A DNA stretch of 64,000 bases. It comes from Candidatus Bathyarchaeota archaeon. Its GTDB lineage: Archaea; Thermoproteota; Bathyarchaeia; Bathyarchaeales; Bathycorpusculaceae. Below are positions 1 through 35,472 of this stretch, piece after piece. The position numbers and the translations under genes were made by a program. How positions within the stretch are numbered: the stretch's first letter is position 1; the number at the start of each line of letters is the position of its first letter. The DNA is taken from assembly GCA_963826715.1 (NCBI GenBank), contig CAWGYA010000008.1:256001-320000 (forward strand), given 5' to 3'. The notes under the pieces are model-generated. The model was not told the origin of the DNA. It saw nothing but the letters and a program-made list of their open reading frames with translations, and searched no databases.

Positions 1-621
1 AGTGAAGAGCATGCGGTAAGTTGTGCCTGCAAGTCGTTTCGATTCGGGGAAGAAAGGCTGATCTATGAGGGTCTCGCATGCTGCTAACCCTAGAAAATGA
101 GGAAACCCCAAGACAATTGACATAAGGTCATCGTGTTTTTGCGGCGACATTATGAAGACGTGAGCGTTTTCCTTCTCCAACCATTTTTTAAACTCCTCTG
201 CATATGCCTCTTCTTGAGGGTTTGTAGGAGTCAGCACATACGCTTTGTGGGCAACACCTCTGCTTCCCGGACCAAAAACGGGGTGTGTTCCCAAAACCAG
301 TGCTTTCTTGAGGTATCTATGCATTATGTTAACTGGATATTCTTTAATTGAGCAGACATCCATTATTGGTTGCCCTTGATGAATTGAAGTTGCAATTTTT
401 TTAATAACTTCCTCAAAAGAGGAAATAGATACACAGATCATGACGCGGTCAGCACCTGATACTGCGGTTGGGAAATCTGCTGTTTCGACGCCCAACTCGT
501 CTTTTAATTTCGCAAGCTTATCTGGATTTCGATCGGCGAGTACCACGACGTCGCCTTTCTCTTTGCACCATTTTGCGAACCAAACGCCCATTTTTCCCGC
601 GCCTAAAACCGCGGTTTTCAT
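1..621 (-). CDS. tyrA: Prephenate dehydrogenase (3' end runs off the window)
   Basis: Not in the ORF track. Hand translation from ATG 621 gives MKTAVLGAGKMGVWFAKWCKEKG (Rossmann GxGxxG). ATGA overlap with the upstream aminotransferase stop; aromatic operon context. Confidence 0.85.
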   Translation of the reverse strand, partial: MKTAVLGAGKMGVWFAKWCKEKGDVVVLADRNPDKLAKLKDELGVETADFPTAVSGADRVMICVSISSFEEVIKKIATSIHQGQPIMDVCSIKEYPVNIMHRYLKKALVLGTHPVFGPGSRGVAHKAYVLTPTNPQEEAYAEEFKKWLEKENAHVFIMSPQKHDDLMSIVLGFPHFLGLAACETLIDQPFFPESKRLAGTTYRMLFT

Positions 622-1715
622 TTAGCTGCCTCACTGATTTTATCGAGCGCTACCCTGATTTGGTCGTCAGGCGCGGTTAGACTTATGCGAAAGTGTTCAC
701 GGTAGTCACCAAAAGATGTTCCTGGTGCAACAGCTACTCCTTTGTCGAGAAGGTCTAAAGTAAATTTTTCGCTGTCTAAACCTTTACGTTTGGGGAAGAC
801 ATAGAAGGGAGCATCTGGTGCAGTAAATTGGAAGCCTCCCGCCGAAAGTTTGGCAGATGCAAGATCGGCGCGTTGCTTGTATTTTGCTTTTATGTTAGCC
901 GCGATTTGTTCGCGCAACTCAAGACCTTTAAGTGCGGCGTCTTGGATAAAGACCGGAACATTGTTGAAGGTGATTTGGTTGAGTTTAGTGACTTTATCAA
1001 CTAAGGGTTTGTTAGCAACAAGGTAACCGATTCGCCAACCTGTCATCGTGAAGGTTTTGGAAAAGCCGTTTGAAAGAATATGTTTGCACTCATTATCATA
1101 ATCAAGGATACTCTTCGTTTCAACAAAGCTAATTGCACCATAAACTTCGTCAGAGAGCACGGTGACGCCTTTTCTATTAGCTATTTCCACTATCCCTTCA
1201 AGAGTTTGCGTGTCCATGACCTTGCTAGTAGGATTGTTAGGGTTATTTAGAATAATCATTTTGGTATCGCTGTCAATAATCCCTTCAAGCTTGTCTAGAT
1301 CTACTTTCCAACCTGTTTCCATCTCGGTTCGAAGCAGCTTAACATTAGCTCCAAAGCTTTTAGCAATTAAGTCATAAGCGGTCCAATAAGGCGTTGGGAT
1401 GATCACATTGCCGCCGTTTTTCAGCAACAGAAACATGGTGGAGAAAATTGCCCATTTTGAGCCGGGAGTTATGACAACGTTTTCTGTTTTGACGCCGTGA
1501 ACTTCAGCGATGGCTTTACGAAGCGATAGTTCGCCGTAAGAAGATGAGTATTTGGTTTTTCCAGCCTGCATGGATGCGTAGGCAGCTTGCACGATTTCAG
1601 GAGGCGTATTCATGTCTGGATCACCGAGGTTTAAACGAATTATCTTTTTTCCTTCACTTTCAAGCTTTAGGGCTTTCTCGTTTATTTCATACAACATTAG
1701 ATGACTACTCTCCAT
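618..1715 (-). CDS. Class I/II PLP aminotransferase (aspartate/aromatic)
   Basis: NNPNNPT, SDEVY and GFSKTFTMTGWRIG motifs; lies between chorismate mutase and tyrA. Confidence 0.9.
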   Translation of the reverse strand: MESSHLMLYEINEKALKLESEGKKIIRLNLGDPDMNTPPEIVQAAYASMQAGKTKYSSSYGELSLRKAIAEVHGVKTENVVITPGSKWAIFSTMFLLLKNGGNVIIPTPYWTAYDLIAKSFGANVKLLRTEMETGWKVDLDKLEGIIDSDTKMIILNNPNNPTSKVMDTQTLEGIVEIANRKGVTVLSDEVYGAISFVETKSILDYDNECKHILSNGFSKTFTMTGWRIGYLVANKPLVDKVTKLNQITFNNVPVFIQDAALKGLELREQIAANIKAKYKQRADLASAKLSAGGFQFTAPDAPFYVFPKRKGLDSEKFTLDLLDKGVAVAPGTSFGDYREHFRISLTAPDDQIRVALDKISEAAK

Positions 1716-1724
1716 TTAGAATTC

Positions 1725-1985
1725 TTAGTGTTGAACTGTGCTGCACATATTAACTATTTCTCGGTAGATCTGCTCAATTCTGTCAGGGTCTAACTTGAGT
1801 AGTTCAGCTCTTTCTCGGACGCGGCTGAAAACTTCATTTTCCCGAGAGATGTCGTGGACAGCTTTACCCTGCTGCTTCTTAACTTCTCCGATGGCGCGGC
1901 AGATTTTTACTCGTAAAACAATATCATGTAGGATTTGATCGTCGACTGCATCGACTTTTTCACGCAGATTTTCTAAGTCACCCAT
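1725..1985 (-). CDS. Chorismate mutase (AroQ type II)
   Basis: LENLREKVDAVD...R...IGEVK...D.SRE pattern; 86 aa. Confidence 0.88.
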   Translation of the reverse strand: MGDLENLREKVDAVDDQILHDIVLRVKICRAIGEVKKQQGKAVHDISRENEVFSRVRERAELLKLDPDRIEQIYREIVNMCSTVQH

Positions 1986-1989
1986 TTTT

Positions 1990-3102
1990 TCAACGCTCCT
2001 TTAGTACCTTTGGGATTTCACCTGAACGTATGAGATGATCCGCTAAGGTTAATGCTACTACAGCTTCTATAGCAGGCACCGCCTTGGGCACCACACAAGG
2101 GTCATGTCTGCCCTTAACACTTATACAGGTATTCTCCATAGAAGCCAAGTTAACCGTTTTCTGTTCCTTGGTAATCGAAGGTGTAGGCTTGATTGCCACA
2201 CGTATCACAATAGGCATACCGGTGGATAATCCACCCAAGATGCCACCTGCATTCTCAGTTGCGGTAACAATTTTATTTCCTTTAATGAGGAAAGAATCGT
2301 TATTTTCTGAGCCCCTCATCTCTGCAACTTTGAAACCAGATCCGAATTCAACACCCTTCACTGCGGGAACACAAAAAAGTGCCTTCGCCAAATCCGCATC
2401 TAAAGCATCAAACAATGGCTCGCCGACGCCAGCAGGCATGTTGAGTGCAACGCATTCGATTACTCCTCCTAAGCTATCCCCTGCCTCTTTGGCTGCAACT
2501 ATGGCTTCCTCCATCTTTTCTGCGCATTCCAAGTCAGGACATCTTGTTGATGCTGAGTTACGGTTTTTACGAATTTCTGAAACATGAAAGTCCTTGTGGC
2601 TCTTGATGGGCCCTATGGCTTGAGTGTAAGCCAGAACGTCTATGTTGTATCTGCCTAGCAGTTTCTTGGCGATGACGCCTGCCATGATAATTGCCACGGT
2701 TACGCGACCGCTAAAGCGTCCGCCTCCACGGTAATCGTTATAGCCACCGTAGCGGATTTTTGCAGGGTAATCGGAGTGAGCGGGTCTTGGAAGGTCTTTG
2801 ATAGCTTCGTAATCACTGGATTTTGTTTCCTTATTCTCTACGATAATTGTAATTGGTGCGCCTGTTGTGTAGCCTTTAAAGACTCCAGTGAGAATTTTGG
2901 GGATGTCTTTCTCAACCCTTGCCGAGACTATTTTGGGGTCCTCTGGTATACGTCTATCGAGTTCATTTTGGAAATCCGTTTGAGCAAGCGGTAGCCCCGC
3001 GGGGCAGCCATCCACGACGACACCAACAACTTCACCATGGCTTTCTCCGATACTAACTACCGTAAATTCTTTACCTAACGAGTTTCCCGCCAACAACTTC
3101 AA
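1990..3102 (-). CDS. aroC: Chorismate synthase (true start may be TTG near 3093)
   Basis: GESHG, RPAHSD, GGGRFSGR, KPTPSI and GRHDPC motifs. Confidence 0.95.
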   Translation of the reverse strand: MKLLAGNSLGKEFTVVSIGESHGEVVGVVVDGCPAGLPLAQTDFQNELDRRIPEDPKIVSARVEKDIPKILTGVFKGYTTGAPITIIVENKETKSSDYEAIKDLPRPAHSDYPAKIRYGGYNDYRGGGRFSGRVTVAIIMAGVIAKKLLGRYNIDVLAYTQAIGPIKSHKDFHVSEIRKNRNSASTRCPDLECAEKMEEAIVAAKEAGDSLGGVIECVALNMPAGVGEPLFDALDADLAKALFCVPAVKGVEFGSGFKVAEMRGSENNDSFLIKGNKIVTATENAGGILGGLSTGMPIVIRVAIKPTPSITKEQKTVNLASMENTCISVKGRHDPCVVPKAVPAIEAVVALTLADHLIRSGEIPKVLKER

Positions 3103-4366
3103 CTCCTAACTGCTTTAGATGATGGAAGAACTGCGGATAAGACTTTCTGATGCACTCCGAGTGGGCAATTACGGTTTCGAATCTTGCCCCCAGTGCAGCC
3201 ACGGCGGCTGCCATTGCTATGCGATGGTCGTTATGTGGGTTGATAATTGCTCCATGTAGCGGTGCACCTTTAATGATCAAACCGTCCTCGGTTATGACTA
3301 CTTGTGCACCCATCCGCGTAAGTGCCTCATAAATTGAGGCAAGTCTGTCGGATTCTTTGATTCGAAGCCGCTTTGCGCCCGAGATATGCGAAGTTCCTTC
3401 CGCATAACAAGCCAAAACTGCTATTACCGGTACTAGATCCGGGATGTTTTTAGCGTCTACATCTATGGGTTTTAGGGATTTACCTGTTCCTTCGATTTCG
3501 ACGCTGCCATGGCATACTTTACCCTCAATGCCCATGCGTTTGAGAATTGTGAGAATAGCTTTGTCACCCTGCACTGTCGAAACGTCGAGATTATCAATGG
3601 TGACCTTTGATGCTGTTATAGCTGAGGCGGATAGAATAAAAGCTGCTGAGGAGAAATCGCCTGGAACTTTGTCGTCGGCTGCCTTGTATGATTGGTTAGA
3701 AGGTATGGTTATGAAGTTTTCTTCCACGCCCACAGTGATAGCATGTTTAGAAAGAACTGCTTCAGTCATTTTTACATAATCTGCTGATTCAAGAGGTGAA
3801 GAAAGCGAGATTTCGGTTTCTGTCTGAGCGAGAGGACAAGCAAACATCAAACCTGAGATGAATTGTGAGCTGATGTTTCCGGGAATCTGGGTTCTACCAC
3901 CAACAATTCCACCGCCGGCCAAAAACACCGCGTCAACATCTCCGACTTTCCCCACGTGTGCTTTAGCGCCAAGATCTTTGAGGCTCTGAAGCAACGGTTC
4001 CACGGGGCGGCGTTCAAGTGAACCCCGAAACAATAACGTTGAAGGTCCATCTGCCAACGCCGCAATGGGAATCATGAATCGCAAGGTGGCGCCTGATTCG
4101 CCGCAGTCGATTGCCTGGCTTGCGGCTTTAAGAGGTTTTGCTCCAGAGATTGCCCAGCAACCGTCTTCCGTCTTAACCTCTGCGTTCAATGCCATGACCG
4201 CCCGTAGCGCCGCTTCGGAATCCTCGGATAATAGGGGGTTTGAAATTTTGGATGTACCCTCTGAGAGGGCAGAGGCAATAACCATGCGCTGTGTATAGGA
4301 CTTAGATGAAGGTGCACAGATCTCTCCGCTGATAAACGGTGTTTTATTGATAGTTACGCTTACCAT
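3071..4366 (-). CDS. aroA: EPSP synthase
   Basis: PSSKS, CGESGATLRF, SSQFISG, LRIKESDR, DHRIAM and KSYPQF motifs. Confidence 0.95.
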   Translation of the reverse strand: MVSVTINKTPFISGEICAPSSKSYTQRMVIASALSEGTSKISNPLLSEDSEAALRAVMALNAEVKTEDGCWAISGAKPLKAASQAIDCGESGATLRFMIPIAALADGPSTLLFRGSLERRPVEPLLQSLKDLGAKAHVGKVGDVDAVFLAGGGIVGGRTQIPGNISSQFISGLMFACPLAQTETEISLSSPLESADYVKMTEAVLSKHAITVGVEENFITIPSNQSYKAADDKVPGDFSSAAFILSASAITASKVTIDNLDVSTVQGDKAILTILKRMGIEGKVCHGSVEIEGTGKSLKPIDVDAKNIPDLVPVIAVLACYAEGTSHISGAKRLRIKESDRLASIYEALTRMGAQVVITEDGLIIKGAPLHGAIINPHNDHRIAMAAAVAALGARFETVIAHSECIRKSYPQFFHHLKQLGVEVVGGKLVR

Positions 4367-4368
4367 TG

Positions 4369-5238
4369 TTAGAGCACCTTAGCTTTTTCGTCGTTAAAAT
4401 ACGCGGTTAAAATTTCACCTTCGTACTTCGATAGTGCAGCTTTGACTTGATCCACTTTGTCTTTAGGAGATATTGCGGTTATGGCGGGTCCTTTGCCGCA
4501 AAGTCCAGCTGCTACTGCGCCTGCAGCCAAGGCGTCAACTGCGATAGTTGTGTTTAGGTTAGAAGCCGCTGAGTAAACAAGTCCGTTAAGTGTGAGCGCC
4601 TCCCAGAACTTATCCGCCATAGCCTGCTCAAAAGCCATTTCTACCAGCGGCTTCACAGTTGCCAACCTCTTCACGTTCGAGTTTGCTGTGTAGGCTTTCT
4701 GAGGTGGAATGTGAAATAGTACCAAAAAGCCCTGAGGCAACTCAATCTGTTTAATGATTGTGCAGTTTTGGTTATTTGTTACTACCGCACCGCCAAAGTA
4801 GGAAGCGCAAGCATCGTCAAACGCACCTGTTATTGTAACTTTGGCTTCGAATGAGGCTTTTATTCCGAGTTTAATTATTTCTATGTCGCCGAGTTGTTTA
4901 TCAAGCGCAGCCATAGTGGCGAGTACTGTTGCGTTTGCAGCAGCACTGCTACTTTTAAGTCCTCGCGCGATAGGAATGTTTGATTTGGTTTTAATTTTAG
5001 CCCCGAAACATTTCTCCAACCCGAAGTGTTTGATGACGTTTGCAGCTGTTTTTTCGACAAGTACCGTGTTTTCTTTAGGATCAGATATTATTTCAACTTC
5101 AATAAAACCTGGTTCGTTAGTCAGCTTCACATCTGCTCTTGTCCATAGATCTACGCCGAATGCGGCACCCTTGCCCAGGGCAATTGCGTTCACGATTGTC
5201 GCTGCACCATGAGCCACTGCAGATGCTTTTCCTACCAC
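4369..5238 (-). CDS. aroK: Archaeal GHMP-family shikimate kinase
   Basis: TIVNAIA, IPIARGLKSSSAAA and TGAFDDA motifs. Confidence 0.93.
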   Translation of the reverse strand: MVGKASAVAHGAATIVNAIALGKGAAFGVDLWTRADVKLTNEPGFIEVEIISDPKENTVLVEKTAANVIKHFGLEKCFGAKIKTKSNIPIARGLKSSSAAANATVLATMAALDKQLGDIEIIKLGIKASFEAKVTITGAFDDACASYFGGAVVTNNQNCTIIKQIELPQGFLVLFHIPPQKAYTANSNVKRLATVKPLVEMAFEQAMADKFWEALTLNGLVYSAASNLNTTIAVDALAAGAVAAGLCGKGPAITAISPKDKVDQVKAALSKYEGEILTAYFNDEKAKVL

Positions 5239-5241
5239 TGG

Positions 5242-6102
5242 TTACACCTTCTGCTGTAAGTGATTAAGCGCAGCCTTCCTCATAACTTCAACAGGCGCTG
5301 ATCTTCCTGTCCAGATTTCAAAAGAGGCTACACCCTGATAAATCAACATCTCCACTCCGCTCACCACTTTGGCGCCTGCAGCTCGTGCGTCTTTTGTTAA
5401 CTTGGTTTCTAATGGATTGTAAACTATGTCCATGACGGCGAGGTTAGAACGAATCAGTTTAGGAGCCACCGGACTTACGTCAGATTTCGGTTTCATGCCT
5501 ATGGATGTGGCGTTGATCAGAATGTCGGAGTCTTGAAGTTGATTTTGGACATCTCGTTGCTCAAGCGAGCCGTAAGCAATTTTTTTGTTAAATGTGTTCT
5601 CTAGCAGTTTAGCTAACTCTTGAGCTTGCTTGACCGTACGATTTAGCACGGCAAGTTCATCAGCTTCCTTTGCCACGCTGTAAGCTATTGCTCGTGCAGC
5701 ACCTCCAGCGCCCAAAAGCAGAACTTTTCTTCCTTTTAGTTCAACACCATTTTCCTTAAGTGCTTTCATTGCACCAACCCCGTCGGTGTTAAAGCCAAAC
5801 AACATGTTTTCCTTGTTGAGGATTGTGTTAACGGATTTTATTATTTGCGCGGACAAGTCGATACGGTCCAGGTGCGCTATTACTTTGCTTTTGTGGGGCA
5901 TTGTGACGTTTAAGCCGCGAATGTTTAGTGCCTTTGCGCCGTTAATTGCATCAGCTACACCTTTTGCTTTGACTTTGAAAGCTAAAAACACGTAATCGAG
6001 TCCCAACTCAACGAAGGCTGCATTATGAATCACCGGACTTAGTGTATGCTCGATAGGGTCACCAATAACACCGCAAACTCGAGTTTTCCCCGACACCTTC
6101 AC
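5242..6102 (-). CDS. aroE: Shikimate dehydrogenase
   Basis: HTLSP, NVTMPHK, NTD, GAGGAA and DIVYNP motifs. Confidence 0.95.
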   Translation of the reverse strand: MKVSGKTRVCGVIGDPIEHTLSPVIHNAAFVELGLDYVFLAFKVKAKGVADAINGAKALNIRGLNVTMPHKSKVIAHLDRIDLSAQIIKSVNTILNKENMLFGFNTDGVGAMKALKENGVELKGRKVLLLGAGGAARAIAYSVAKEADELAVLNRTVKQAQELAKLLENTFNKKIAYGSLEQRDVQNQLQDSDILINATSIGMKPKSDVSPVAPKLIRSNLAVMDIVYNPLETKLTKDARAAGAKVVSGVEMLIYQGVASFEIWTGRSAPVEVMRKAALNHLQQKV

Positions 6103-6785
6103 GGCAACAACCCCAGCATTTTATATGCCAACTTCATTTCTACGATACGAATTTGTCCAACTGCAGTTTCGTTGCCGCCCTCCAGAGAGGCAAAGGTAAA
6201 GAAGGCACCAAACGCAGGGGAGAGCAAACGTGAAGTTTTTCCATGTTCTCCCATGCAAAAACATACAAGTTTAGCCTTGGCGGAGGCAAACGAAACAAAG
6301 CTTAGGATAGGGAGATTGTCTTCAATACGTTTGGCTGTTAGGACTATTTTGCAGACTGAGGCACCCCTGGCGATTTGCTCATCAAGAATGTGTTCCAAAG
6401 CAGAGACTGATAGGATACCATCGAATTTATGATAGGAAATAATGGGTTTAGCTCCTAAAGCTTTTATTTTGTTGACAGTTTCATCGCACATTTGGCTTGT
6501 AAAGTCCACATCAATGTATTGAAAACCGTTTTGGGCAGCGTTAAGAAGAGTATTCTGACGTTCAACATCAGAACCAGAGAAATAGCCTTTTTCGCTAAGG
6601 AGTTTACAAGTAGCGATAAGAGGGATTTTTGTTGTCGCTGTGAGTTCGGAGAGATCCTGCGCTTCCTCGAGAAGATCCAAGCGCACTTCGATTATATCAG
6701 CTTGGGCGCATTCCGCCTGTTCGATTAGAGTCTTTCCTTCTTTTTCAGTTTTGGGGAGAATCGAAACACAGATTCTCATGCTCAC
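6099..6785 (-). CDS. aroD: Type I 3-dehydroquinate dehydratase
   Basis: EVRLD, ISYH, VCKIV and MGEHGKTSR motifs. Confidence 0.9.
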   Translation of the reverse strand: MSMRICVSILPKTEKEGKTLIEQAECAQADIIEVRLDLLEEAQDLSELTATTKIPLIATCKLLSEKGYFSGSDVERQNTLLNAAQNGFQYIDVDFTSQMCDETVNKIKALGAKPIISYHKFDGILSVSALEHILDEQIARGASVCKIVLTAKRIEDNLPILSFVSFASAKAKLVCFCMGEHGKTSRLLSPAFGAFFTFASLEGGNETAVGQIRIVEMKLAYKMLGLLP

Positions 6786-7813
6786 TTTTCAATCACCGTT
6801 TCATCAGGCACCGATATTCCGAAGTGTCTGCCACCCTTCGCTGCCAAATGCACCACTACTTCATCGCCTGGTTTAAGTTCTGTAACTGGCTTGGAGGCAT
6901 CAGGGGTCACGACACGAATGGTTTCTGCATTTTGCAGAATCACCTTTATGGTTTTCTCGGCTACTTGCGCCTCGACAAGTATTAGGGGGCGGATTTCTAT
7001 TTTTATTCGACCCACATTAGCTTTGCGGGTTCTGCCCTCCCTGTTAACAATTATGACTTCGTCTCCTGCTTTGAATTCTTGGAGGTAACGTGTAGTCTGG
7101 AGATTACCCAATGTATACATTGACAAAGAACCAGCGTTCACTCGGAAGGGTCGCGATGCCACGTAAGGGTTCTCGTTAACTTCAGCTTCAACGAGAAACA
7201 AACCTGCACTTTGGCTGCCAACAAGCATGCCTTCGCCACTGATCATCATATCGCAAGTGTCTACGCAAACCCGTGCACCTGTACTTATTGGTTTAATTGA
7301 AATGATCTTTGCGACTGCCATTTCGAGTTTTAATGCCTCAGGTTTGACAATAGCAATAGTCTTGAAAATTTCTTCAGGGTCAGATGTCTTTAATAATACC
7401 CCATCAGTCCCAAGCTCGAGGGTTTCAATTGCCACTTTTGCCTCTTCTGCATTGGCTACTTCAGCTATTAATTTACTTGTTTTTTTAATTCTGGCAATTA
7501 AATTTTCCAAAGGGATAACACGCCAATTTGCACAACCAATAATCAAGTAACGAACACCTAATTCAGCAACTTTAACAGCTAAATTTTCAGTTTGTTTGTC
7601 AACAATGCAGAGCCTAAAAACAGCGTTGTTAATCTCTTTGCCCTCAAGATTTTCTGGTTGTAGACGTTTAATAGTAGTTGATTCATTGGTTTGGAAAAAA
7701 GTGATTTTATCACCTTCGACAACGGCGTCACAATAGGGAGCCACGATTGATAGAGTAGAAGCCCTTTCTTGCTCCGAGACTGTAGAAGGTATTTCTATCC
7801 AAAGGGTCTTCAT
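6782..7813 (-). CDS. aroB': 3-dehydroquinate synthase II (archaeal AroB')
   Basis: RVCVDTC, GEGMLVGS, RPFRVNAG, LQNAETIR and GRHFG motifs. Confidence 0.93.
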   Translation of the reverse strand: MKTLWIEIPSTVSEQERASTLSIVAPYCDAVVEGDKITFFQTNESTTIKRLQPENLEGKEINNAVFRLCIVDKQTENLAVKVAELGVRYLIIGCANWRVIPLENLIARIKKTSKLIAEVANAEEAKVAIETLELGTDGVLLKTSDPEEIFKTIAIVKPEALKLEMAVAKIISIKPISTGARVCVDTCDMMISGEGMLVGSQSAGLFLVEAEVNENPYVASRPFRVNAGSLSMYTLGNLQTTRYLQEFKAGDEVIIVNREGRTRKANVGRIKIEIRPLILVEAQVAEKTIKVILQNAETIRVVTPDASKPVTELKPGDEVVVHLAAKGGRHFGISVPDETVIEK

Positions 7814-8601
7814 CGTTTATCTCCGAGAATTTTTTGCGCCTGCTCAACCGAGGCGTTTTCGTGAACTATGGAGGAGAGGGCCTTTACCATGAGGGTGGGG
7901 TTATCACATTGGAAAACGTTTCGACCAATAGAAAGCCCTGCTGCACCTGCCTTGATTGCATCTAATGTAGTTTCAAGAACTTCCACGGGGGATTTGCATT
8001 TGGGTCCACCTGCAATAACAATGGGCACAGGGCAGCTTTCGATTACAACTTTGAAGCTCTCTATGTTACCGGTGTAGTTTGTTTTTATAATGTCTGCGCC
8101 AAGTTCTGCTCCTATTCGAGCGGCATGAGCAACAACAGTGGGGTCGTGTTCACTTTGAATTCGAGGACCTCGCGGATACATCATCGCTAATAGAGGTAGC
8201 CCGTAGTGTTCACATTCTTCGCTAACTTTACCTAGGTTCGCAAGCATCTTATCTTCGTCCTGCGCGCCTATGTTCACATGGACGCTGACAGCGTCAGCTC
8301 CGAGGCGGAGAGCTTCTCCTACGCTGCAAACCTGTACTTTAGAATTGAGATTTGGTGCGAGATTTGACATACCTGATAGCATAACGATTAATCCAGCGCC
8401 ATCCACATCGATGAGTTTTGCAATGCCCTTATGGACTAGAATAGCATCGGCTTTGCCTTTAATGAGCTGGTTAGTAATATTTTGCATATTAGTTATGCCT
8501 TGGACGGGCCCTATTGTTACGCCATGATCCATGGGTACAATGACTGTGCGGTTATCTTTTTGCATAAGTTTTTTTAGTCTACGGGTTTTGCCTACGTTCA
8601 T
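7810..8601 (-). CDS. aroA': 2-amino-3,7-dideoxy-D-threo-hept-6-ulosonate synthase (DhnA-type aldolase)
   Basis: PMDHG, AMMYPRG, GADIIKT and GRNVFQ motifs; adjacent to DHQ synthase II. Confidence 0.9.
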   Translation of the reverse strand: MNVGKTRRLKKLMQKDNRTVIVPMDHGVTIGPVQGITNMQNITNQLIKGKADAILVHKGIAKLIDVDGAGLIVMLSGMSNLAPNLNSKVQVCSVGEALRLGADAVSVHVNIGAQDEDKMLANLGKVSEECEHYGLPLLAMMYPRGPRIQSEHDPTVVAHAARIGAELGADIIKTNYTGNIESFKVVIESCPVPIVIAGGPKCKSPVEVLETTLDAIKAGAAGLSIGRNVFQCDNPTLMVKALSSIVHENASVEQAQKILGDKR

Positions 8602-8614
8602 GTGTCTTCCTCGT

Positions 8615-9859
8615 TTAGTTTGTCTTTAGCGCATTTTTTATTAATTTTAAAGCTTTCTCTTTTTCGTTCCAATCTATAAATAACAATATACTTGAAGTAA
8701 TAGTCAAGATGCCTGAAATGTTTATGCCGTTAACGTTCAAGTCCTCGCTTATTCGACCGATTATACCATGAGTTTTCTCCAAACCAACACCGCTTGTTTT
8801 GATAAACACCAAGTCCTTCTTAACGGCCATAGCGATTGTTTCTTTGTTGTTTATTGTTATTTCGTGTATTTGGTTAAAGAGATTATTGATTGTTTTCTCT
8901 TGTGGCACATAGAGGATTATCGAGTTAGTGTTCATCGACATACCCAAAAGCATGGAGTTTTCTTTGACTTTCTCTACCAGCTGTGTGATAACCTGAGGAT
9001 TAGCTGATAATCCATCCCCAACAACAGTGATTTCAGCAACTGGCATAGGATGGGCAATTTCAGCGTCAAGTTCCGAGGCTAATCCACCTTTAATTAGGGT
9101 TCCTTCTTTGCCAAGATCACCATAGGCTGAATTCATAACTTTCACATCAATGTTTTCGGGTTTGTATTTGAGAGCCTTGCTATGGATGAACTTTGCGCCT
9201 GAATCCGCTAAACCCACAAGTGTGTTAACGTTGATTTCTGATAGTCTTTGGGGTGTACCGACGATTTTTGGGTCACCAGACATTATGCCATCTGCATCGG
9301 TTACAAGGACTACTTGGTCGGCATTTAGTCCCTTGGCCAAGAGGAAGGCTGTGGTGTCGCTTCCACCTCTGCCAAGGGTGGTAATTTTGCCACTTTTTGT
9401 TTTGCCCACGAACCCTGGGATGACAGGTATTAATCCTTTTTCTACTAGGGGGAGGATGCATTCATTGATGTTTTCTGCGCATTCTTGTAACAGCGGGTTG
9501 GCGTTTTGGAAGGCTTCGTCAGTTATGATGGGCCATTTGCAGTCCATTGGATCGAAGTAGCATGCGGCCACTCCGTTATTGCGCAATGCGGTTGCAAAGA
9601 TACGCACGCTAGTGCGTTCACCCATAGAAAGAATGTCATCTAAATCATGTTTTTCCAGTTTACCATTCGAAGTATTTTTTGCTGTAGTCATAAGGACATC
9701 AGTGGTTTTGCCCATAGCTGAGACCACGACAGTTACTTTGGTGCCTTTTTTGGCTTCATTCACTACTGCCATTACAGCACGTAAAAGACGTTCATGATCG
9801 GATAGACTGGATCCCCCGAATTTAACAACAATTTTACGTTCAGAGAGTTGTTTTGCCAT
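8615..9859 (-). CDS. lysC: Aspartate kinase (copy heading the aromatic operon)
   Basis: KFGGSS, VVSAMG and TTLGRGGSDTTA motifs; C-terminal ACT-like regions. Confidence 0.9.
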   Translation of the reverse strand: MAKQLSERKIVVKFGGSSLSDHERLLRAVMAVVNEAKKGTKVTVVVSAMGKTTDVLMTTAKNTSNGKLEKHDLDDILSMGERTSVRIFATALRNNGVAACYFDPMDCKWPIITDEAFQNANPLLQECAENINECILPLVEKGLIPVIPGFVGKTKSGKITTLGRGGSDTTAFLLAKGLNADQVVLVTDADGIMSGDPKIVGTPQRLSEINVNTLVGLADSGAKFIHSKALKYKPENIDVKVMNSAYGDLGKEGTLIKGGLASELDAEIAHPMPVAEITVVGDGLSANPQVITQLVEKVKENSMLLGMSMNTNSIILYVPQEKTINNLFNQIHEITINNKETIAMAVKKDLVFIKTSGVGLEKTHGIIGRISEDLNVNGINISGILTITSSILLFIDWNEKEKALKLIKNALKTN

Positions 9860-9880
9860 TTTGTGTTACACCCTTGTTTT

Positions 9881-9918
9881 GCCCAGAACCGCTCTTGAAA
9901 AAATTTTCAGTTCTGGGC
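9881..9918 (-). promoter_or_regulatory. Stem-loop in the leader of the aromatic operon
   Basis: Perfect 9-bp inverted repeat GCCCAGAAC/GTTCTGGGC (9910-9918 and 9881-9889). On the mRNA strand it encloses TGAAAATTTTTTCA. Confidence 0.65.
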
Positions 9919-10008
9919 TTATGGAAAATATTCGTTATAATAAAAGACGTAGTCGAAGCTACGGAACAAAATTGCAGTACCAGCATCTTTTCCATTTGCA
10001 ATTAGCAT
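9919..10008 (-). CDS. Putative Phe/Tyr-rich leader peptide MLIANGKDAGTAILFRSFDYVFYYNEYFP
   Basis: Hand translation from ATG 10008 to TAA 9919. The last 15 codons include 4 Phe and 4 Tyr. It lies between a TATA box and the first gene of the Phe/Tyr operon. Confidence 0.7.
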   Translation of the reverse strand: MLIANGKDAGTAILFRSFDYVFYYNEYFP

Positions 10009-10040
10009 TGCTTCGAACCTTTGGAATCACTCATATACCA

Positions 10041-10060
10041 AAAAATATAAGCGTTTCGGA
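10041..10060 (-). promoter_or_regulatory. BRE-TATA promoter of the aromatic operon
   Basis: Minus strand reads TCCGAAACGC-TTATATTTTT, about 40 nt upstream of the leader ATG. Confidence 0.55.
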
Positions 10061-10209
10061 TTTAAGCTAAACAATAAGAAGTTAACTCTGGTTCTTAAGA
10101 AAATATGATCCCCTTATTTCTGCGGGGGACGACGTAGTGGAGTTGAGGTAATGGGTTACCAATATTATCACTCGATGAGGTTTAATTTACAAACAATAAT
10201 TGGTGCAAA

Positions 10210-10911
10210 TTACCTTTCGATTTTTATTATCTGAGGTAGCTTCCCGGCTGTTCCAACTTGTCCCTTGTAAATAATCAAGACACCTTCAACTCCATCAATT
10301 GCTAATGCTCTTCTGATCCCCGCTTCAATCCCCACCTCAACATCTCCTGTGACAACATTACCTACTGCAGTCGCCGCTGCATCAGCTAAACTGGCGTTTT
10401 TGCAGAAAACCGTAGCTGCCTCCGCTTGACCAAAGCTAAAAGCGTGACTAAAACATCCTGAGCTGGTAGCGACGGCAATTGGGAACTCTGTTAAGCGGAA
10501 ACCGAAGCGTCTTGAGAGTGGTTCTTCGCCCATGGCTACAGCAATGTCGATAGATTGTTTTGATTGTGCCATGATTTCACCGCCATCCTCCACAACCGCA
10601 ACTTTGCAATTTGTTTTTAGCATATCCGCAACTGCTAAGTCGGCTATAGCTCCAGCAACTGCCGCCATCGGGCCCACGTCTGCTTGCTCTGCTGCTTGAG
10701 CCATAAGTTTTGCAACTAGTGGCGATTCAGGAGGCGTTACAGGTTTAAAAGTATGCAGAAATTTTTTGTTCCCTTGAGCATAAAGTTCTAGTTCTGCATA
10801 ATTATGGGTGATAGATGCCTTAGCGACTTCTATGGCTTGATGGCTGTCAGAAATTATGGTGCATTGAGATTCTTTTAAAATAAAACTTTTCTTAAGCAGA
10901 TTCAATGTCAA
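10210..10911 (-). CDS. UPF0280/ApbE-like protein (MA1715-type sulfur assimilation)
   Basis: VGPMAAVAGAIAD, EDGGEI, ATSSG and ADAAATAVGN motifs. Start moved to TTG 10911, which overlaps the upstream stop. Confidence 0.85.
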   Translation of the reverse strand: MTLNLLKKSFILKESQCTIISDSHQAIEVAKASITHNYAELELYAQGNKKFLHTFKPVTPPESPLVAKLMAQAAEQADVGPMAAVAGAIADLAVADMLKTNCKVAVVEDGGEIMAQSKQSIDIAVAMGEEPLSRRFGFRLTEFPIAVATSSGCFSHAFSFGQAEAATVFCKNASLADAAATAVGNVVTGDVEVGIEAGIRRALAIDGVEGVLIIYKGQVGTAGKLPQIIKIER

Positions 10912-11345
10912 CTTTTCTTTACCTTGCTGTTTACAGAGGTGTCGAACCCATTGGTTTTGATTGACTTTATGGCGCGGGCAGGGCAAGCGTCCACGCAGAT
11001 ACTACATGAACTACCGAGACATTTTTCCTTATCAAAGTTGATTGAAGCATCTTTATCTGTTCTTATGGCTTCCACAGGACAAAGGGCCACACAACTACCG
11101 CAGCTAAAACAACTCTCATAATCTACCTCTATCAGTTTGGGCACGGCTACAGTAACGCCGCGTTTTCGGAAAGCTTCAACTATTTTATCGAGGAATTCAT
11201 CAGGGACTTCGGCTAGAATCTCCCCACCTTTTGAATTAATCTGAGCAGACAGAATTGCGATTGGCACCTTGTATTCGATAATTATTTGTGATGCAATGGG
11301 CTCTGCTACTTGTTCTTCGTTAAATCGGATAAGAATTCTCCCCAT
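10908..11345 (-). CDS. NIL domain + 4Fe-4S ferredoxin (aspartate semialdehyde sulfurtransferase Fe-S subunit)
   Basis: N-terminal NIL-like region; CFSCGSCVALCP and CSICVDACP motifs; follows the DUF39-CBS gene. Confidence 0.85.
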   Translation of the reverse strand: MGRILIRFNEEQVAEPIASQIIIEYKVPIAILSAQINSKGGEILAEVPDEFLDKIVEAFRKRGVTVAVPKLIEVDYESCFSCGSCVALCPVEAIRTDKDASINFDKEKCLGSSCSICVDACPARAIKSIKTNGFDTSVNSKVKKS

Positions 11346-11349
11346 ATCA

Positions 11350-12852
11350 TTACCTTCCTAAAAGTTTAGCTACGTCTTCAGCAGTAACAATTCCTAACAC
11401 TTTCTTTTCGATGTCCACCACGGGTAACGCAGAAATGCAATGTTGCCCCATCCGCTTTGAAGCAATTTCAAGAGGCTCATCGGGTTTGGCTGTAAAGACT
11501 TTGTGGGTTTCGATATCTGCTAAGGCTTTTTTGCCTTCTGCCATGGCGCGAGTTATATCCCATGAGGTTACAATGCCCCGAAGTTTGCAATCACCATCCA
11601 CTACGACAATATGGTTAACAGATTTTGTTACTATACGCCGTGCAATGACGTGGATTTCTTCATCTTCAGTACAAGTGACTGCAGGATGCATTACATTAAC
11701 GACGAAGGGGATTTCTTCAGTTTGCCGCATGGGCTTAAAAACTGTGCTATTTGGCAGTCGCTCAATGGGGGGGGTTAATGTGAAGGTGCCTTCTTCAATC
11801 CATGATTTGAGTGTAGCGGAAACCTTCTTCGCCATCTTTATGCTTGATAACGAGCTAACGCGAACTTTTTTGCCATTCACGTTGATGCTGCCTGATTTGA
11901 GTTCTTTGTAACTAACTTGCCCAAACTTGGGGCGATCACGCCTCGGCACGCTGTAATCAACTACGTCGGTTAAAATTTCGCTATCGCGAATAGCGGTTTT
12001 TTTGGCTAGTCCTAAATTGAGAATTGGAATGGGAATACCCAACCCTACATAGAGGGAGGTACCATACCCTTTGAAAGAAGCCCCCCGCAAAAACTCACTT
12101 GACATCTGCTTTGCGTCTCCCTTCACCATTAAAGTACCGTTTAGGTTTTTGGGGCTATGCTGCGTACCTTCCCCGATGACATAACCCTGTCCACCACCAA
12201 GAAAGATTCGGGTACCCATTCCTATGGTTTCATAATCAGGGTCGTTCATGAGCGGGTTTAATTCGCCTGCACCTGAGAAAGTGGCATTGCGGAATCTGGG
12301 AAGAAGTTTGCTCATATATGTATAGATGATTTCGTCGCTGCTATTTACTGCGCAATTATATCGTTGGTAGCAGTTGCGGAAATTGATAAGGTAAAACTGG
12401 TTTAAGTCATCTGAGGTTAAGGTTGTTTTGATAGAGGTGCGTGGATAGCAATCGGTACCATAGGCATTGGCTCTTAGTTCGACTTCTCTTCCTGCGACTA
12501 AGTCCTCGATAATGTGTCCGCCACCGTATTCATAGGGTTGTTTCTCTGACATGTTGGTTGCGCCAATGAACAAATCCACTGCCGCACCGGGATGGCAGAC
12601 TTCGACGTCGTTTAACCAAGCATGATCAATCTTGATTGGAGGATCGGAGTGCCCAATGTTAATCACTGCACCTGAACTGCACATTGCGCCAAAAGTTCCA
12701 GTGGTAACCACATCTACTTCTTTGAAGGCAACTTCAATACCGCTGCTCTCAACGAGTTTTTTCATTTCTTCAGCGGTTAGAACTTGAGCGTCGCCTTTGC
12801 GAATTTTCTCATTAATCTCTTCGATGCTGCGGGTTTTCGCTTCCTTAGACAA
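11350..12852 (-). CDS. L-aspartate semialdehyde sulfurtransferase (DUF39 + CBS pair, homocysteine biosynthesis)
   Basis: DVVTTGTFGAMCSSG, YGGGHIIEDL and GTDCYPR motifs; two C-terminal CBS domains. Confidence 0.9.
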   Translation of the reverse strand: MSKEAKTRSIEEINEKIRKGDAQVLTAEEMKKLVESSGIEVAFKEVDVVTTGTFGAMCSSGAVINIGHSDPPIKIDHAWLNDVEVCHPGAAVDLFIGATNMSEKQPYEYGGGHIIEDLVAGREVELRANAYGTDCYPRTSIKTTLTSDDLNQFYLINFRNCYQRYNCAVNSSDEIIYTYMSKLLPRFRNATFSGAGELNPLMNDPDYETIGMGTRIFLGGGQGYVIGEGTQHSPKNLNGTLMVKGDAKQMSSEFLRGASFKGYGTSLYVGLGIPIPILNLGLAKKTAIRDSEILTDVVDYSVPRRDRPKFGQVSYKELKSGSINVNGKKVRVSSLSSIKMAKKVSATLKSWIEEGTFTLTPPIERLPNSTVFKPMRQTEEIPFVVNVMHPAVTCTEDEEIHVIARRIVTKSVNHIVVVDGDCKLRGIVTSWDITRAMAEGKKALADIETHKVFTAKPDEPLEIASKRMGQHCISALPVVDIEKKVLGIVTAEDVAKLLGR

Positions 12853-34062: not shown

Positions 34063-35472
34063 ATGAAAATCATTATGAAGTTCGGCGGCACTAGCGTCGG
34101 GACAGGCGAAAATATACGCCACGTAGCAGAAGTTGTCATGCAGTATTCAAAACAAGATTACAAGGTAGCGGTGGCGGTTTCTGCATTAGCAGGCGTTACA
34201 AACAGTTTAATTGAAGTAGGCTGCCAAGCTAAGAAAAGCAACGAAAATCAAATCCAAACTTTTACCGCTGATCTGTTAAAGAAGCATATAGAAGCTATAG
34301 AGAGAGCTATTAGCAGCAAAAGTATTCAAAAAGAAGTTACTGACATTACCGAGAAAACCATAATTGAACTTGAAAAAGTCTTAACAGGCATCTGTTATGT
34401 TGGCGAATTAACACCTAAATCTAAAGATTATGTCATGTCGTTTGGTGAGCGGTTGTCTGCACCTATTGTTTGGGGAGCCATAAAAGACCTTAAGGGCAAA
34501 ACTCAATGGTTCACAGGTAAAGACGCTGGGATTGTTACTAATTCAAACTTTGGTGAAGCCGATCCTCTCATGAACTACACCACTCATCTGATCCGTGAAC
34601 GTTTAAGCCCTCTGCTTGAGCAGGGCGTTATCCCTGTTGTCACAGGGTTTATCGCGGCAAATCAAGATGGAATTATTACCACTGTTGGGCGAGGCGGTTC
34701 CGATTATACTGCGACTATCCTTGGTGTGGCTTTGCAGGCGGATGAAGTTTGGATATGGACAGATGTGGACGGCATAATGACCACCGATCCTAAAATCGTT
34801 CCCACTGCCCGCATGCTCTCTCAGTTAAGTTATCAGGAAGCCGCGGAAATGGCGATTTTTGGTGCCAAAGCCATGCATCCTCGAGCTCTTGGACCGGTCA
34901 TAAAGGAAAATATACCTGTACGCATCCGAAACACTGCGCATCCCGAAAATCAAGGTACTCTTATCACTAAAGAACCCAACCCCAATGCTAAAGAAGCTGT
35001 GAAGGCAGTCGCCATGATAAAAGATGTGGCGATGCTTAATGTCTACGGTGCGGCAATGGTTGGAGCACCGGGAAGTTATGCAAAAATATTAGATGTTTTG
35101 GGGAAAAACAACATCAACGTCATGATGGTATCTGCAGCAGTCTCTGAAGCTAACATTTCAATGATAATCAAGCGAGGCCTATTGGGTAGAGCCATTAGCA
35201 ATCTAGAAATTGCTTTGTTGGAACGCGGAGGCATAGTCAATGAAGTCACTGCAGAAGATGATGTCGCTGTAATCGCTGTGATGGGCGCCTATATGAAAGG
35301 TACCTTGGGTGTAGCATCGAAAATCTTTAGCATCGTTGCAAAGAAGGGCATTAACGTCCGGATGATTGCTCAAGGCAGCTCTGAACTTAACATTTCCTTT
35401 GTTGTTAAGGAGAATGATGGGTTCTCAGTTGTGCAGGAGATACACAGAGAATTCAATTTAGACAAAAAATAG
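34063..35472 (+). CDS. lysC: Aspartate kinase (Thr/Met branch)
   Basis: MKFGGTSV and GRGGSDYTA motifs; two ACT domains (AQGSSELNISF). Confidence 0.95.
   Translation: MKIIMKFGGTSVGTGENIRHVAEVVMQYSKQDYKVAVAVSALAGVTNSLIEVGCQAKKSNENQIQTFTADLLKKHIEAIERAISSKSIQKEVTDITEKTIIELEKVLTGICYVGELTPKSKDYVMSFGERLSAPIVWGAIKDLKGKTQWFTGKDAGIVTNSNFGEADPLMNYTTHLIRERLSPLLEQGVIPVVTGFIAANQDGIITTVGRGGSDYTATILGVALQADEVWIWTDVDGIMTTDPKIVPTARMLSQLSYQEAAEMAIFGAKAMHPRALGPVIKENIPVRIRNTAHPENQGTLITKEPNPNAKEAVKAVAMIKDVAMLNVYGAAMVGAPGSYAKILDVLGKNNINVMMVSAAVSEANISMIIKRGLLGRAISNLEIALLERGGIVNEVTAEDDVAVIAVMGAYMKGTLGVASKIFSIVAKKGINVRMIAQGSSELNISFVVKENDGFSVVQEIHREFNLDKK

Follow-up and report, generated by a model that had tools for sequence, protein, structure and literature searches.

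The window analysed here, a 64,000-nucleotide (nt) stretch of a Candidatus Bathyarchaeota archaeon genome (assembly GCA_963826715.1, contig CAWGYA010000008.1, positions 256,001 to 320,000), harbours a 29-codon open reading frame (ORF) rich in Phe (F) and Tyr (Y) codons upstream of an operon for aspartate kinase (AK), the shikimate pathway and Phe/Tyr synthesis. This ORF very probably acts as a cis-acting regulatory leader peptide, which would sense the supply of Phe-tRNA and Tyr-tRNA through ribosome stalling. Sequence comparison establishes the leader ORF together with its bias towards aromatic codons, its constant position and a hairpin abutting its stop codon; that stalling provides the signal, the direction of regulation and the entire read-out step are our inferences. 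Taken as a whole, the observations are probably best explained by a leader peptide of the AK/shikimate/Phe-Tyr operon, combined with a hairpin that responds to ribosome position and, as the preferred read-out, a U-rich tract hidden by this hairpin. What appears to be new here is the presence in Archaea of leader-peptide logic of the bacterial type, built on another architecture with a single hairpin.

Leader ORF and its conservation

The leader ORF is located at 9919..10008 of the window, on the minus strand, as are the other leader features described below. It starts with an ATG at 10008-10006, ends with a TAA stop codon at 9921-9919, and its translation is MLIANGKDAGTAILFRSFDYVFYYNEYFP. Phe or Tyr corresponds to eight of the last fifteen codons and to none of the first fourteen, and the aromatic codon tract (F15, F18, Y20, F22, Y23, Y24, Y27 and F28) extends over 9925..9966. 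This is in agreement with the original prediction, made from the sequence alone, which had described a 29-codon ORF with this distribution of Phe and Tyr; coordinates and translation bear it out. Its placement between a B recognition element (BRE)-TATA box and an eleven-gene run is likewise borne out, and the genes of the run are confirmed by Pfam.

Judged by composition alone, the ORF is moderately unusual within this genome of 2.64 Mb and 41.5% GC. At least eight F/Y residues per 15-residue segment were found in nine of the 4889 intergenic, ATG-initiated small ORFs (sORFs) of 12-60 amino acids (aa), and in 33 of 24479 sORFs genome-wide. Shuffling the last 45 nt 20000 times gave a mean of 2.7 F/Y/W residues compared to the eight observed (P = 0.0004), and the AT-richness of the sequence therefore does not explain the bias. 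The leader ORF is beyond chance because it is conserved in relatives. Shuffling and conservation together speak against the caveat, raised with the original prediction, that these AT-rich codons could have arisen by chance. Two leader peptides compared with Pfam and NCBIfam matched zero families at E values up to 1. The scan of 9700-10400 against Rfam 15 returned four matches with E values of 1.4-8.3, all far under the gathering scores, and no described cis-regulatory RNA family. A scan for sigma-70 promoters and terminators, using bacterial models of little relevance to an archaeon, had as its sole match a 5-bp stem (CGTAG/CTACG, 9963..9948) over the Ser-Phe-Asp-Tyr codons, followed by the T-rich Phe/Tyr codons. 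This terminator-like stem was rejected as a conserved element, as it is weaker or absent in most relatives.

All 24 genomes of the same genus that were searched contain an orthologue of the AK gene, as do three more distantly related ones, and an F/Y-rich sORF ends approximately 45-110 nt before the AK start in all 27 orthologous loci. Among 40 loci of the order anchored on aroA', AK lies upstream in 24, and the upstream ORF (uORF) is present in all of these. The 16 aroA' loci without AK upstream had no aromatic sORF passing the filter, bar one unrelated match, and the leader therefore travels with the AK gene. In close Bathyarchaeia the uORF was found in 80 out of 80 oriented AK loci (79 by script, L104 by eye), although the sets of 27, 24 and 80 loci overlap and the genomes are related, so that these counts are not independent. 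No F/Y-rich uORF was found at the three loci (L028-L030) of the other AK paralogue.

The family consensus is M-x(12-16)-S-F-(D/G/E)-Y-x-F-Y-Y-..-Y-F-(P/N/T/S). In the relatives, F and Y make up 63% of the last 13 residues (639 out of 1014), compared to 45 F among the 1103 earlier residues and to a genome-wide F+Y codon share of 7.9%. Frame 0 is open in all 78 unique sequences, the other two frames in 45 and eight of them, and 78 out of 78 have an in-frame ATG as the first one past the conserved 5′ anchor, at 42, 45 or 48 nt. Tyr codons alternate between TAC and TAT, and Phe and Tyr replace each other among relatives. The original prediction had proposed a search of orthologous operons for a conserved F/Y-rich uORF with synonymous variation, and the 80 close loci display precisely this, including the TAC/TAT changes and the F/Y swaps. 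Its concern that the uORF might be absent or not enriched in relatives proved unfounded, given that an F/Y-rich uORF is present in every close relative examined and also in many distant, including GC-richer, families.

Across the class, 47 further AK loci were fetched, one of them truncated, and 19 of the 46 usable loci reach at least six F/Y/W per 12 residues, always 59-93 nt upstream of the extrapolated start of AK. Nineteen of the 22 class loci that do not belong to families f26 or f35 are positive; f26 and f35 together contribute none out of 24 and represent an internal negative control. The positive families are f32, f14, f19, f30, f27, f34, f16, f37 and f11, together with three more genera of f1, and borderline class loci were found in f11 g41, f15 and f37. 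Outside the class but within the same phylum, eight out of 20 loci are positive, belonging to f57 (3/3), f61 (2/2), f46 g125 (2/2) and f52 (1/1); f65 and f43 are borderline, and f51, f46 g142, f17 and f70 are without leader. Some of the loci lacking an F/Y-rich leader possess recurrent small ORFs of another kind, MG..(F/L)FGDGVY.. in f26 (L153, L160, L168) and ..FGGHIYGD(H/R)YW.., with F, Y and W, in f35 g109 (L162, L170), and these may be divergent leader types.

Between lineages the leader peptides are unrelated save in composition, for example ..SFDYYFYYYHFP, ..NPYYYYYYYCFF, ..RFFDFFYYYFYFE, ..FGFFYGFYFYFYFGP, FHYPYFYFFYCYYFFEG and RFFGYFYFYYFK, and the nucleotide sequences of the distant leaders are not alignable with one another. 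The leaders of some lineages (g20, g22, g24, g25) include a Trp codon, and several distant uORFs possess their own GGAG-type Shine-Dalgarno (SD) motif and start with ATG, GTG or TTG. For the nucleotide shuffle and the following tests on hairpins, T asymmetry and anti-SD pairing, lineage representatives were hand-picked, one per family or genus; in the nucleotide shuffle, P was below 0.01 in all 21 representatives, those other than the window having been chosen by their F/Y/W score. As the peptide sequence differs and the aromatic richness is kept, the pattern fits codon sensing rather than a peptide with a function of its own. The features kept across lineages appear to be only the aromatic-rich C-terminus, the start and stop codons, and a stop-adjacent hairpin ending just before the AK ribosome-binding site (RBS).

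Predicted promoter and hairpins of the leader region

The alignment of 24 same-genus leaders contains a near-invariant block at 10042..10059, composed of a BRE-like CCGAAACGC followed by a TATA-like TTATATTTT, which we take to be the promoter from its similarity to the archaeal promoter consensus. The motif GGTTCGAAGC (10010..10019), also conserved in the alignment, lies approximately 25-30 nt past the TATA box and corresponds to the predicted mRNA 5′ end and to the 5′ strand of a helix, P1. Judging from the conserved BRE/TATA spacing, transcription probably begins some 10-14 nt upstream of the leader ATG. The 3′ strand of P1, AGCTTCGAC (9952..9960), pairs with 10010..10019 and comprises the Ser-Phe-Asp codons of the leader. 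Among these, the AGC-TTC (Ser-Phe) codons are invariant (77 out of 77), which suggests an RNA-level constraint besides coding. The motif GGTTCGAAGC has a single non-coding occurrence in the genome, at the leader locus; one further non-coding match, to AGCTTCGACTA, is located at C8:1051097 without ORF or operon context.

The second hairpin, P2, is located at 9881..9918 and is formed by the 5′ arm GCCCAGAAC (9918-9910) and the 3′ arm GTTCTGGGC (9889-9881), with A4 (9907-9904) and T6 (9903-9898) between them. Folding predicts a 9-bp stem enclosing A4-T6, the first base of which directly follows the leader stop codon. Downstream of P2, an SD-like GGGTG (9873-9869) and the AK start codon (ATG, 9857-9859) occupy 9857..9873, as seen in the sequence and the alignment. 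No intrinsic terminator, that is a stem with a U run, was found before AK in the window, where the P2 stem is followed by AAAAC and T6 lies inside the loop. The P2 motif is unique in the genome, and the leader with its hairpin is not a repeated genomic element.

Over 79 family sequences, 92.8% of the P1 cells and 92.5% of the P2 cells are paired, measures that kinship among the aligned sequences can inflate; sliding the partner by 1-3 columns as a control left only 23-47% paired. In both helices, one-sided changes consist almost entirely of sense-strand G-U wobbles, and four P2 pairs have changes on both sides. Stronger evidence for an RNA architecture than these family counts is provided by the hairpins of the distant lineages, which are unrelated in sequence and located in the same place. 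In 21 of the 23 lineage representatives, a single hairpin with a predicted dG of -15 to -28 kcal/mol starts within -3 to +5 nt of where the stop codon ends, and the distant-lineage hairpins end 1-13 nt before a G-rich SD-like motif. The 3′ half of the hairpins is richer than the 5′ half in T (0.40 vs 0.15) and in pyrimidines (0.65 vs 0.41), an asymmetry present in 19 out of 22 lineages. Two loci of f46 g125 (L208, L210) have in addition a predicted 14-bp long-range helix between early leader codons, CCCCAGCTTCGGAAAA, and the stop-spanning TTTTGAAGCTGGGG, with the whole aromatic tract in its loop.

Possible read-outs and alternative explanations

In the proposed mechanism, scarcity of Phe-tRNA or Tyr-tRNA would cause the first ribosome to stall within the eight Phe/Tyr codons, 6-42 nt before the stop, and with both tRNAs plentiful the ribosome would reach the leader stop codon. 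As the hairpin starts right at the stop, folding of P2 would report the position of the ribosome, which on the last codons or the stop would keep the 5′ arm of P2 single-stranded, and when stalled further upstream would let P2 fold. A biosynthetic operon must be ON upon stalling, and therefore the folded hairpin should represent the ON state. How folding might be read out is a more tentative matter. A transcriptional read-out is preferred because constrained folding did not support the translational ones, and we consider it possible, with less than even confidence, that folded P2 masks a U-rich termination signal. Unfolded P2 would leave its U-rich 3′ half (T6 in the window) exposed on the emerging transcript, where it would serve as a termination signal of the archaeal kind, acting intrinsically or through aCPSF1/FttA and ending transcription before the kinase gene. 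Folded P2 would enclose the U tract and allow read-through into the operon.

Several observations are consistent with such a signal. In this genome, runs of at least six T on the sense strand were found in 25.3% of the 80-nt stretches downstream of genes, compared to 3.6% of gene interiors and 4.8% of 45-nt 5′ leaders, and in 283 such runs the preceding 36 nt are for the most part free of structure. Oligo-T in this genome behaves like a terminator, and gene ends are marked mostly without an upstream hairpin, in agreement with the archaeal gene ends described in PMC8716108. As T runs of at least six mark gene ends, the conserved T5-6 inside P2 is a candidate termination signal. The genome also encodes an aCPSF1/FttA orthologue (TIGR03675, 899 bits). 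The protein aCPSF1 binds terminator U-tracts via its KH domains (PMC8716108), and FttA has been proposed as the archaeal counterpart of Rho, policing transcription-translation coupling (PMC11616081). The original prediction held that ribosome stalling on Phe/Tyr codons regulates read-through. Its sensor, the conserved F/Y-rich uORF, is supported. The leader of the window has no terminator/antiterminator pair of the bacterial type, and its T6 lies in the P2 loop and not past the hairpin.

A number of points weigh against this interpretation. The leader ATG of the window has no SD. The double changes, seen in five of the 20 P1 and P2 pairs, are not more numerous than in shuffles, so that covariation is limited. 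The window family folds to P1 and P2 only, with no terminator/antiterminator alternative and no conserved partner for the 3′ arm, and T6 is unpaired inside the P2 loop, so that "hidden" means enclosed and not base-paired. Only eight out of 22 lineages have a run of at least four T within the 3′ half of their hairpin or the 8 nt that follow it, and three out of 22 have one of at least five T; therefore the U-tract read-out is not universal as stated. In f14, g16 and f11g31, T5-6 directly follows the hairpin, similar to a bacterial terminator; read in the bacterial way, such a stem with T5-6 would end transcription when the ribosome stalls, the opposite of what a biosynthetic operon requires. 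In f57 and f61, and only there, we found a classical-looking 1:2/2:3 alternative, in which the last two codons, GGT CCC, pair with a post-stop GGGGACC, and in f52 the stop codon lies in the loop of a hairpin made with the last three codons. As these folds differ, the read-out may vary between lineages. According to a hypothesis in PMC11616081, a ribosome adjoining RNA polymerase may sterically exclude FttA, which would narrow the time window for masking of the U tract. Finally, the regions upstream of trpE and hisG in the same genome contain no W- or H-rich uORF, so that trp and his are without an analogous leader. A scan for single-amino-acid-rich sORFs upstream of gene calls in this genome, crude ones taken as the longest non-overlapping ORFs of at least 100 aa, revealed no convincing case. 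Leader peptides are therefore no general strategy in this genome.

Regulation could instead be translational, similar to ermC or cat, with the position of the leader ribosome altering access to the AK RBS, either because the freed 3′ arm of P2 pairs with the SD or because the aromatic tract itself acts as an anti-SD. We regard this as rather unlikely. The hairpin does end only 1-13 nt before the G-rich SD in all lineages, and the GC-richer g24, g25, f11g31, f5, f57 and f61 possess CUCC-like anti-SD strings in the 3′ arm and GGAG-like strings in the 5′ arm. Among 21 distant leaders the mean unpaired probability of the SD is 0.44 with a stalled ribosome and 0.30 with one at the stop, a weak and noisy decrease in which some SDs are misassigned. 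However, constrained folding of 78 leaders of the window family gave equal RBS accessibility in all ribosome states (0.43-0.50), and seven leaders outside the class exhibited no consistent change in SD accessibility. A consistent gain in RBS accessibility upon stalling, as in SD release of the ermC/cat type, was thus not found in constrained folding. In the window, moreover, the 3′ arm GTTCTGGGC lacks complementarity to GGGTG, and P2 is thermodynamically dominant, so that any SD occlusion would be brief. The aromatic tract as anti-SD was rejected, as native tracts pair with the AK RBS less than shuffled ones do in 20 out of 25 lineages.

Control of mRNA stability appears improbable, although it would provide the correct regulatory sign: the stalled ribosome, P1 and P2 would shield the transcript from 5′-to-3′ exonucleases (aRNase J, aCPSF2), and the mRNA would accumulate in starvation. 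Stabilisation of ermC mRNA by ribosome stalling in Bacillus is a precedent. The predicted RNA 5′ end is itself the 5′ strand of P1, and the genome contains two further beta-CASP matches besides aCPSF1 (253 and 184 bits). Nonetheless, this leaves the stop-abutting hairpin of 21 out of 23 lineages and the U/pyrimidine asymmetry unexplained. More improbable still is a functional aromatic-rich micro-protein, such as a modified-peptide precursor or a kinase partner, or an RNA or DNA element only (a TTCGAA-type operator, a repressor palindrome) in which the ORF is incidental. The recurrence of the S-F-(D/G/E)-Y core in several families would suit the former, but the peptide sequence differs across families with only the aromatic richness kept, it has no Pfam or NCBIfam match, and no modifying enzyme was found among the operon genes by Pfam. 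Similarly, GGTTCGAAGC/AGCTTCGAC and GCCCAGAAC/GTTCTGGGC are inverted repeats at the DNA level too, as expected for an operator, but on the sense strand the changes in the arms are compatible with G-U pairing, and some of them compensate each other. The distant lineages keep the place of the hairpin with unrelated sequence, which therefore fits an RNA structure rather than an operator. Against an incidental ORF, frame and start are kept, and several distant lineages have an SD of their own.

Genomic context and comparison with known systems

The operon controlled by the putative leader (1..9859, minus strand; ORFs and Pfam) comprises eleven genes: AK, AroA′, AroB′, AroD, AroE, a GHMP shikimate kinase, AroA (EPSPS), AroC, chorismate mutase, an aminotransferase and TyrA. 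The AK gene (8615-9859, minus strand) encodes 414 aa with the Pfam domains AA_kinase and ACT. Downstream of it, Pfam detected a DeoC-type aldolase (AroA′), DHQS II (AroB′), DHquinase I, shikimate DH and GHMP kinase, followed at the end of the operon by EPSP synthase, chorismate synthase, CM_2, aminotransferase and prephenate DH (1-621, continuing past the window edge). The AroA′/AroB′ route uses up aspartate semialdehyde. In distant lineages the order is leader-AK-(ASD)-AroA′-AroB′-AroD, with aspartate-semialdehyde dehydrogenase (ASD) between AK and AroA′. An AK suits this aro operon because AroA′/AroB′ consumes aspartate semialdehyde and the ASD gene adjoins AK in distant relatives.

A prephenate dehydratase (PDT domain) is encoded at C8:253340-254185 on the plus strand, just outside the window, in a gene run converging on the end of the aro operon, and this Phe-branch enzyme is therefore outside the control of the leader. 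The operon directly upstream of the leader (10210-12852, minus strand) encodes an HcyBio+CBS protein, an NIL+4Fe-4S ferredoxin protein and a 258-aa protein without Pfam match. If the HcyBio route of homocysteine biosynthesis (sulfur incorporation) also starts from aspartate semialdehyde, two pathways consuming this compound lie side by side. Between this operon and the aro promoter, at ~10128-10093 (minus strand), a T-rich stretch preceded by a short stem of G+C (CCCC...GGGG) looks by eye like the terminator of the upstream operon, which would leave the aro operon with its own promoter. The window also harbours a second, distant amino-acid-kinase homologue (34402-35385, plus strand), with 32% identity over AK residues 66-390, which presumably serves another pathway. 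Elsewhere in the genome, the trpE upstream region (C8:1244881-1245020) possesses closely spaced TGTACA-like repeats, GGGTACAATGTACACTAATGTGCAG, which to us recall TrpY-type operators.

Leader-peptide attenuation is a textbook bacterial mechanism that needs coupled transcription and translation, and archaea couple both. As expected for an attenuator, the ORF lies between the putative promoter and the first gene and is probably translated, with end-product codons that are over-represented and conserved while other residues drift. It is doubtful, though conceivable, that this is the first archaeal ribosome-mediated transcription attenuator, old enough to be common to Bathyarchaeia and other classes of the phylum, and that it differs in its working from the bacterial type: a single stop-abutting hairpin would fold only with the ribosome lagging on Phe/Tyr codons, and its folding would hide a U-rich signal from aCPSF1/FttA. 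If true, archaea would regulate via transcription-translation coupling by a factor-dependent route, analogous to Rho but evolved on CPSF73-type machinery. The element is short, sharply defined and kept in at least a dozen and a half family-level lineages, which makes it a concrete experimental object. It could reveal whether ribosomes steer RNA polymerase or FttA in archaea, and by what means, and it would provide archaeal genetics with a natural Phe/Tyr-responsive switch. The leader also supports the view that this AK paralogue is dedicated to the aspartate-semialdehyde-dependent AroA′/AroB′ route to aromatic amino acids.

The original prediction had considered leader-peptide control to be barely documented in archaea; a full-text search retrieved neither a leader peptide that senses amino acids nor a ribosome-mediated attenuator from archaea, with supplements and subscription journals outside its scope, so that an earlier report may exist. 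Two archaeal Ribo-seq studies mention uORFs only generically in their accessible passages (PMC10117724, PMC11456600), and a tool paper remarks, with reference to reviews, that uORFs have a regulatory role in archaea as well (PMC10219788).

Similar to the pheL-pheA, trpL and hisL attenuators of E. coli, the archaeal leader is a short 5′-leader ORF with a variable N-terminal half and a C-terminal half crowded with end-product codons, and the position of its stop codon is such that a ribosome terminating there occupies the following segment of RNA. The F-P-stop ending is found in pheL too. However, the archaeal leader has one post-stop hairpin in place of the 1:2/2:3/3:4 set, with the T run in the loop and not past a terminator stem. 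It would sense Phe and Tyr jointly, and in some lineages Trp besides. The operon opens with the gene of an aspartate kinase that feeds the archaeal AroA′/AroB′ route, and termination would be archaeal (oligo-U, possibly aCPSF1/FttA). Under the preferred model, the leader would resemble Rho-dependent attenuation of the tnaC type, in which the position of the ribosome decides the access of a termination factor to nascent RNA. The tnaC peptide sequence itself senses free Trp, whereas the archaeal leader peptide sequence is not conserved between lineages. A protein-mediated control of archaeal aromatic operons is that by TrpY-type DNA-binding repressors at the promoter. The leader has in common with these the feedback on archaeal aromatic amino acid synthesis, but would act through a translated leader and RNA structure and not through a promoter-bound protein. 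In mycobacteria, polycysteine leaderless uORFs are reported to be Cys-responsive attenuators of downstream operon genes (bioRxiv 10.1101/834739). On this description, both are short ORFs at or nearly at the mRNA 5′ end and rich in the codons of one amino acid or, here, of Phe and Tyr; the mycobacterial system is bacterial and responds to Cys, whereas the archaeal leader has a predicted 5′ untranslated region of ~10-14 nt that would pair with the coding region (P1).

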